From Verrucomicrobiia bacterium (GTDB lineage: Bacteria > Verrucomicrobiota > Verrucomicrobiia > JADLBR01 > JAIBCM01), in the NCBI GenBank assembly GCA_041395165.1, contig JAWLBA010000001.1, positions 4,925 through 68,924 on the forward strand: DNA of 64,000 nt, given 5' to 3'. Positions 6,311-7,081 of the stretch are shown one piece after another. Each line of letters starts with the position of its first letter. Positions within the stretch are counted from its first letter, which is position 1. The notes under the pieces are model-generated. The model did not search any database and was not told the DNA's origin. It saw only the letters and a list, made by a program, of their open reading frames with translations. A program made the position numbers and the translations under genes.

Positions 6311-7081
6311 TTAATAGGGGCCGACTCCCCAAGCTCGAGGGTCAACGATATGGTTAGCGGCTTGGCTTCCAAAATTTTCCACTTCTTTAAACGCTGCATT
6401 TAATTTTGTTCCTGCTTTATCGGCGATAGCGGCTCCACTTTAAACTGCGCTATCGATGGTCGCATCTTCTAAAATGCAAAGTGGATTATAACCTCCTAAG
6501 CATTCTATTGTTTCTGCACTTGCTAAAACTTTATCAACACCGTCGTTGATGGTGTTGCCTACGGATTGAAGGGTATGTTGAAGAAGAGCTAAGAGGAGTG
6601 CTGTTCCTGTCGTGGCAGCCAGAGCAGCGGCTTTATTGGCAGCTTCAGTTGTTGCAATAACTTTTTCAATTGCTTTTTCAACATTGTTGGGATTTCGTAA
6701 TTGCAGGGTAGAAAGAATGTTTTCCAATTCGGTAAGGGCTTTACCGGCTTCTTGAGTTTTGTTCAAAGCCATTGCTGCACTATCCAACACGCGCGTTGCA
6801 TCTATGGTGGCTCCAGTAGCCCTTGCGGCATCATCAGCTTTATCGTAGGCGGCTTGTGCCTTGGCTAAAGCATTTTGATGAAGTTTTTTTAATTCAGCCA
6901 TTTTTGCAATAAGTTCTTCCGTTTTTCCCAAGGCATCAGCCAAATTTTTAAGGTCTTTAGCTTGATCGAAAAGCTGATTAATTGCGCTTAAAGAGTCTTG
7001 GACAGTATCTAGATGGTTTGCATTTTTAAGCCAACGATGGGCTTTGCGGATGAGGCGCGATAACATATCTTTAAATAACAA
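6311..7081 (-). pseudogene. paralog family member P3b with an in-frame TAA (6440..6442) at a conserved Gln position
   Basis: ORF 6440..7081 ends ...ECLGGYNPLCILEDATIDSAV*. The same frame continues SGAAIADKAGTKLNAAFKEVENFGSQAANHIVDPRAWGVGPY* to 6311. P2 has gtt CAA aat gga at the position where this gene has gtt TAA agt gga. Confidence 0.6.

Follow-up and report, generated by a model that had tools for sequence, protein, structure and literature searches.

An in-frame TAA at a conserved glutamine codon in one member of a tandem, lineage-restricted gene family of a Verrucomicrobiia bacterium

Introduction

The closest described counterparts of the gene analysed here are nonsense pseudogenes in redundant paralog families, in which an in-frame stop occupies a sense codon and homologous sequence continues downstream; such genes have undamaged paralogs beside them, and related genomes have lost other members of the array to differing extents or keep only remnants of them. 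Among natural nonsense mutations, the change of C to T at CAA is one of the most frequent. Genes can also appear interrupted as artefactual pseudogenes in metagenome and long-read assemblies, and bacterial readthrough or nonsense suppression, as with ochre suppressor tRNAs or leaky UGA, likewise combines an in-frame stop with an intact, conserved extension. UAA is the least leaky of the bacterial stop codons, and known bacterial recoding uses mostly UGA.

The gene, P3b, lies in a stretch of 64,000 nucleotides (hereafter the window; positions 4,925 to 68,924 of contig JAWLBA010000001.1, GenBank assembly GCA_041395165.1) from a metagenome-assembled genome (MAG) of an uncultured Verrucomicrobiia bacterium. 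It shares with nonsense pseudogenes each of the features named above, but differs in that its family is extremely narrow, with no Pfam match and five representatives among 1.84 billion, and in that the mutation is known from a MAG consensus. With artefactual pseudogenes it has in common a surrounding 10 kb in which indels, often in A/T runs, interrupt conserved genes including an essential one; unlike them, its TAA is a substitution and sits outside the indel patches. Compared with bacterial readthrough, the intact conserved extension is the same, but the stop is a UAA in an ordinary terminator context, is not conserved and has no detected stimulatory structure, and the window is devoid of a suppressor tRNA. 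On balance, we lean towards the view that the TAA is a genuine nonsense allele that arose very recently and abolished the function of P3b.

Results

A single C-to-T transition closes P3b ahead of an intact tail

Read on the minus strand, the window carries GAT AGC GCA GTT TAA AGT GGA GCC GCT, with the TAA at 6440-6442, and this triplet closes the P3b ORF (6440..7081), which specifies 213 aa if read from a TTG, or 208 aa if translation starts at the ATG (7066). Past the stop, the frame stays open for exactly 42 sense codons (6314-6439) and then ends at a second TAA (6311-6313); the remaining two frames across this stretch both contain stop codons. The translation of the tail, SGAAIADKAGTKLNAAFKEVENFGSQAANHIVDPRAWGVGPY, begins SGAAIADK and finishes DPRAWGVGPY. 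The lesion consists of one C>T transition (G>A on the plus strand) that turns CAA into TAA at codon 209 of the 251 that run from the ATG, and neither a further stop nor an indel occurs in P3b. The hypothetical protein R3F23_00080 deposited for this MAG (P0001; Verrucomicrobiia bacterium, on a 458-kb contig) has 208 aa and was 100% identical to truncated P3b. Since P0001 is the window's own truncated P3b ORF, the TAA is present in the deposited assembly.

An earlier note on this DNA had proposed that an in-frame TAA at a conserved glutamine codon splits P3b, and sequence, frame and homolog alignments all agree with this. Its further statements, that the 42 additional codons align with the C terminus of the paralog P2 and that P2 reads GTT CAA AAT GGA at this place, were borne out by a gap-free alignment with 26 of 42 identical residues and by codon comparison, respectively. 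Identity over the tail was likewise gap-free for the full-length orthologs P0002 (29/42), a 255-aa protein that is 57-58% identical to P3b (K1X66_03445, from GCA_019694135.1, the genome referred to below as L001), and for P0003 (17/42), a 254-aa protein from Logan assemblies that is 51% identical to P3b. When full-length P0002 was used as a tblastn query, its residues 1-255 matched window positions 7066..6314 across the stop (E = 1e-67). CAA was found at the stop position in all four homologs compared at the DNA level (P2, P5183, P0002 and P0003), glutamine in the five intact homologs (these four and P0004), and the Gln column was invariant in the six-sequence alignment A3.

Searched against 5.8 billion proteins, the read-through product of P3b returned three, namely, P0001, P0002 and P0003. 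Exact look-ups of the P3b ORFs (213 aa and 208 aa), P2 and P0001 found no contig, an exact 32-mer spanning the P3b stop, its variable base replaced by N, had no match in JGI metagenomes, and family-profile scans of metagenome contigs and GTDB species representatives revealed no relative. In a PlsX scan of species representatives, the nearest protein showed 78% amino acid identity, and the family was present at 0 of 80 loci (Chthoniobacterales-like). None of the collections searched contained a strain-level relative of the window, and a literature search on the assembly and locus-tag identifiers gave no match.

P3b belongs to a tandem array of an undescribed family

P3b is part of a tandem array of five minus-strand members in the window, namely, 3251-3924 (Pa), P2, 5183-6175 (P5183), P3b itself (6311-7066) and 7143-7976 (Table 1). 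Six family members were tested against Pfam, and none gave a hit above the gathering threshold; a family profile run against 1.84 billion cluster representatives retrieved only five proteins at E <= 0.001. The gene family is undescribed and restricted to a single small lineage of Verrucomicrobia.

Table 1. Features of the P3b locus and of the surrounding genes, in window coordinates
Feature	Position	Strand	Remarks
coaD (phosphopantetheine adenylyltransferase, normally essential), over three frames	2603-3111	-	four indels
Paralog Pa, TTGPIE subfamily, split over two frames	3251..3924	-	an A probably missing near 3463
Intact paralog P2, 282 aa	4108..4956	-	
Intact paralog P5183, 330 aa	5183..6175	-	ortholog is P0004 in JGI contig L085
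P3b, 42-codon tail and ancestral stop TAA (6311-6313)	6311..6439	-	carries K-L..F and W-G-x-G
Premature TAA at a conserved CAA (Gln) position	6440..6442	-	homologs P2, P5183, P0002 and P0003 have CAA
P3b, upstream part, 208 codons (R3F23_00080)	6443..7066	-	P0001 100% identical; alternative TTG start at 7081
TTGPIE-subfamily paralog, ortholog of the L001 278-aa gene (h278)	7143..7976	-	indels at 7808, 7815 and 7948
GNAT acetyltransferase, split across frames	8125-8600	-	indels at 8418 and 8515, others near the 3' end
CBM96-like gene (CBM96a)	11098-12096	+	single-A deletions at 11903, 11964 and 11978, in A runs, within 75 nt
Distant family member, ortholog of the L001 325-aa gene (h325)	12227..13205	+	N terminus broken by indels at 12237, 12326 and 12372

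Only K-L...F and the W-G-x-G at the terminus are conserved in all three subfamilies, and these residues lie exclusively within the 42 past the stop; the cross-subfamily conserved columns in alignment A5 are L34, F38, W58 and G61. In an AlphaFold2 model of the P3b ortholog (mean pLDDT 60), the N-terminal part is predicted to form a four-helix bundle at a pLDDT of about 70-89, and the C-terminal conserved module has a pLDDT of about 30. Foldseek with this model retrieved only generic or designed helical bundles, none of them from the PDB at E <= 1e-3, and was uninformative as to function. Truncation to 208 aa leaves P3b with the N-terminal helical bundle and a C-L-G-G-Y-N-P-x-C motif.

Many members (from the window, L001, P0004, P0006 and P0007) open with M-G and then a stretch that is basic and amphipathic (MGLFRK, MGFRSK, MGLGRW, MGLGNA and MGLWKE), and all members stop within a few residues of W-G-x-G. 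These features could hint at a targeting or lipidation signal.

The array turns over rapidly, and the P3b tail shows no decay

L001 is a close relative of the window, with housekeeping proteins 91-100% identical and the same gene order. Both P3b and the 278-aa gene have an intact ortholog in it; P5183 is reduced there to a 55-aa remnant (10785-10952) and P2 to a 106-aa remnant (11204-11524), and 3251-3924 has no counterpart. The array comprises five members in the window, two in L002 (9022-10765) and one in JGI contig L085 (3402-4376). This difference in content among relatives indicates a rapid birth and death of the family, which evolves through rapid gain, loss and recombination. Relative to L001, dN/dS was 0.28-0.51 for the family versus 0.02-0.18 for neighbouring non-family genes.

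The divergence of P3b itself is mosaic. Over its first ~125 residues (6690-7066), it differs from L001 more than L001 and L002, the more remote relative, differ from each other, at synonymous and nonsynonymous sites alike, and the topology of this part is (window,(L001,L002)); a central block of 39 aa is 100% identical to L001. Such a pattern suggests recombination or allelic replacement inside the gene. In the tail, the window branch has accumulated 3 nonsynonymous changes and 0 synonymous ones; the L001 sister branch has 2 and 1, respectively. In addition, four residues of the C-terminal module that are invariant elsewhere are lost in P3b (P246L, P249T, T296A and G299A), suggesting that constraint on P3b was relaxed already before the stop.

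We rejected the idea of a long-standing pseudogene, since the divergence is mosaic, the tail has no excess of change and there are no more stops or indels. Over window positions 1-16700, dS relative to L001 varied about five-fold from gene to gene, from 0.14-0.19 for the CBM96-like and 278-aa genes to 0.6-0.74 for plsX, fabH, M42 and rpe, a pattern suggestive of a chromosome made mosaic by recombination.

Frame-breaking indels surround the array

Set against L001, the 2.6-12.4 kb stretch of the window shows frame-breaking indels at 16 or more sites, in genes with dN/dS values of 0.05-0.28. The earlier note lacked this context, namely, that at least five neighbouring genes, coaD included, carry multiple frame-breaking indels in otherwise strongly conserved coding sequence. 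Between 13 and 64 kb, no frame-breaking indel was apparent and long intact ORFs cover 95% of the sequence; A/T homopolymers per kb are more numerous there than in the indel-bearing stretch.

In coaD, the indels are +1 at 2653, +1 at 2741 (in an A run), +2 at 2855 and -2 at 2967 (in a T run). The frame-corrected gene shows about 95% amino acid identity to L001 and a dN/dS of 0.05, and it is most likely broken by assembly error rather than being a true pseudogene. The CBM96-like ORF encodes 280 aa versus 333 expected, with a dN/dS of 0.08 and zero mismatches near the deletions. The GNAT gene (dN/dS 0.13) and the 278-aa ortholog at 7143-7976 (0.28) are both otherwise well conserved. At 3251-3924, the ORF 3457-3924 closes at a TAG and the TTGPIE...W-x-G tail runs on in another frame (3251-~3480); judging from the letters, one A is probably missing from 'ccaaaagc' near 3463, and adding it would restore a single 3251-3924 ORF. 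At the N terminus of the 325-aa ortholog (12227-12440, plus strand), the indels are -2 at 12237, +1 at 12326 and -1 at 12372, and the listed ORF begins at 12390. Candidate substitution-type stops in this gene were rejected as frame artefacts of the three indels.

Between the GNAT gene and rsmD, we also observed a 201-aa ORF (8781-9386, plus strand) with a HELGH zinc-metalloprotease-like motif. L001 lacks a counterpart of this ORF, and its DNA does not align with window positions of about 8600-9400.

Overall, the indels in the 2.6-12.4 kb stretch look like consensus or assembly errors. We read them as artefacts because several separate frameshifts within a gene that is essential, with no excess of nonsynonymous change, are unlike true decay.

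The TAA itself could be an error of this origin, in which case the organism would have CAA and make the full 251-aa protein, a possibility that we take seriously without favouring it. Relative to L001, coaD is broken by 4 indels, CBM96a by 3 single-A deletions and the GNAT, h278 and h325 orthologs by 2-3 indels each. The frame-corrected genes are near-identical to L001 and under strong purifying selection (dN/dS 0.05 for coaD and 0.08 for CBM96a), and true pseudogenes with so many indels should show far more nonsynonymous changes. Because at least 16 frame-breaking indels hit genes under strong purifying selection, local base-calling is demonstrably unreliable. P3b lies in the middle of this stretch, outside which the 13-64 kb part is intact, and its central position therefore raises the prior for a wrong base at the TAA. 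The absence of decay in the tail is also what an error would produce.

However, the recognisable artefacts are all indels, clustered in tight patches of 75-400 nt, and there is no substitution-type stop among them. The patch nearest to the TAA is at least 1.3 kb away, and P2, P5183 and P3b, which together span about 3 kb, contain zero indels. Substitutions showed no significant excess near the indels (9.3% versus 6.8%, p = 0.09), and the patches followed no clear pattern when set against identity to L001 in 200-nt bins. Moreover, stops arise from only 4.1% of the possible single substitutions in the P3b gene, so a random substitution would yield one about 4% of the time.

A recoding signal at the TAA is very improbable

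The earlier note had offered three explanations, a very recent pseudogene, a sequencing error or a readthrough site. The one-base CAA>TAA nonsense change ahead of an intact tail stood, and readthrough found no support in stop usage, homologs, RNA fold, Rfam or the tRNA content of the window. Programmed readthrough or ochre suppression, in which UAA would sometimes be decoded (e.g., as Gln) to give products of 208 and 251 aa, is in keeping with the intact, in-frame tail and with the location of the stop in a loop, the codons on either side of it pairing into a hairpin of 7-8 bp. However, the local RNA fold was not better than that of shuffles (z = -0.75), there was no Rfam match, and no tRNA was found in the 64-kb window. 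TAA ends 29 of the 47 long ORFs in the window (62%), and 11 of these end in TAA-A, the same context as in P3b. That TAA serves so widely as a terminator argues against its reassignment, and its efficient decoding would be broadly harmful. Nor does any ortholog or paralog have a stop at the P3b position, all five homologs having Gln. On these grounds, we rejected code reassignment and consider readthrough very improbable; if true, it would be a rare bacterial ochre case, with short and full-length products from an undescribed, clade-restricted family.

We give hardly any credence to a real truncation whose 208-aa product is a functional, selected short isoform, or to the variant in which a split gene yields the tail as a product of its own: NCBI annotates the 208-aa ORF as a protein, and this form keeps the helical bundle and the Cys motif, but the sole residues conserved across all subfamilies sit in the lost tail, no relative has a short form ending at the P3b stop, and neither ATG nor TTG is available as a start in the tail, where the sole in-frame GTG lies 20 codons past the stop with no obvious Shine-Dalgarno sequence before it.

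Discussion

Several observations support a real mutation, namely, an isolated transition away from the indel patches, the rarity of stops among the possible substitutions, the invariant CAA/Gln followed by a gap-free tail, the fast turnover of the family and the loss of four further invariant residues. Counting against it are the MAG origin of the consensus sequence, the indels in the surrounding 10 kb and the fact that the missing post-stop decay is equally expected from an error. Given that no such decay is seen, the stop is very young, if it is real at all.

If the nonsense allele is real, as we lean towards, the CAA>TAA change would have arisen in one of several fast-evolving, lineage-restricted paralogs arranged in tandem. 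Translation of P3b would then halt at codon 209 and give a product of 208 aa, with loss of the last 42 residues and, among them, the sole positions conserved in every subfamily (K-L...F and W-G-x-G). Because the lost tail holds the most constrained element of the family, the truncated product is probably inactive. The neighbouring intact paralogs P2 and P5183 could buffer the loss of P3b, in an array that evolves by birth and death and of which relatives keep one member, two, or two plus remnants. The event would be recent, because the P3b tail has decayed no more than the sister branch. We infer both that the T is present in the DNA of the organism and that the truncated protein is without function.

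The P3b stop is an accurate observation but an ordinary one, a one-base nonsense lesion or a base-call error in a dispensable paralog. As an everyday inactivating mutation or a base-calling error, it matters little. Of wider consequence for users of this MAG is a stretch of roughly 10 kb with many apparent indel artefacts, whose 'pseudogenes', namely, coaD, the GNAT gene, the CBM96-like gene and several family members, are not reliable at face value. The tiny orphan family itself, with its predicted four-helix bundle, its C-L-G-G-Y-N-P-x-C motif and its terminal W-G-x-G, may merit a study of its own.
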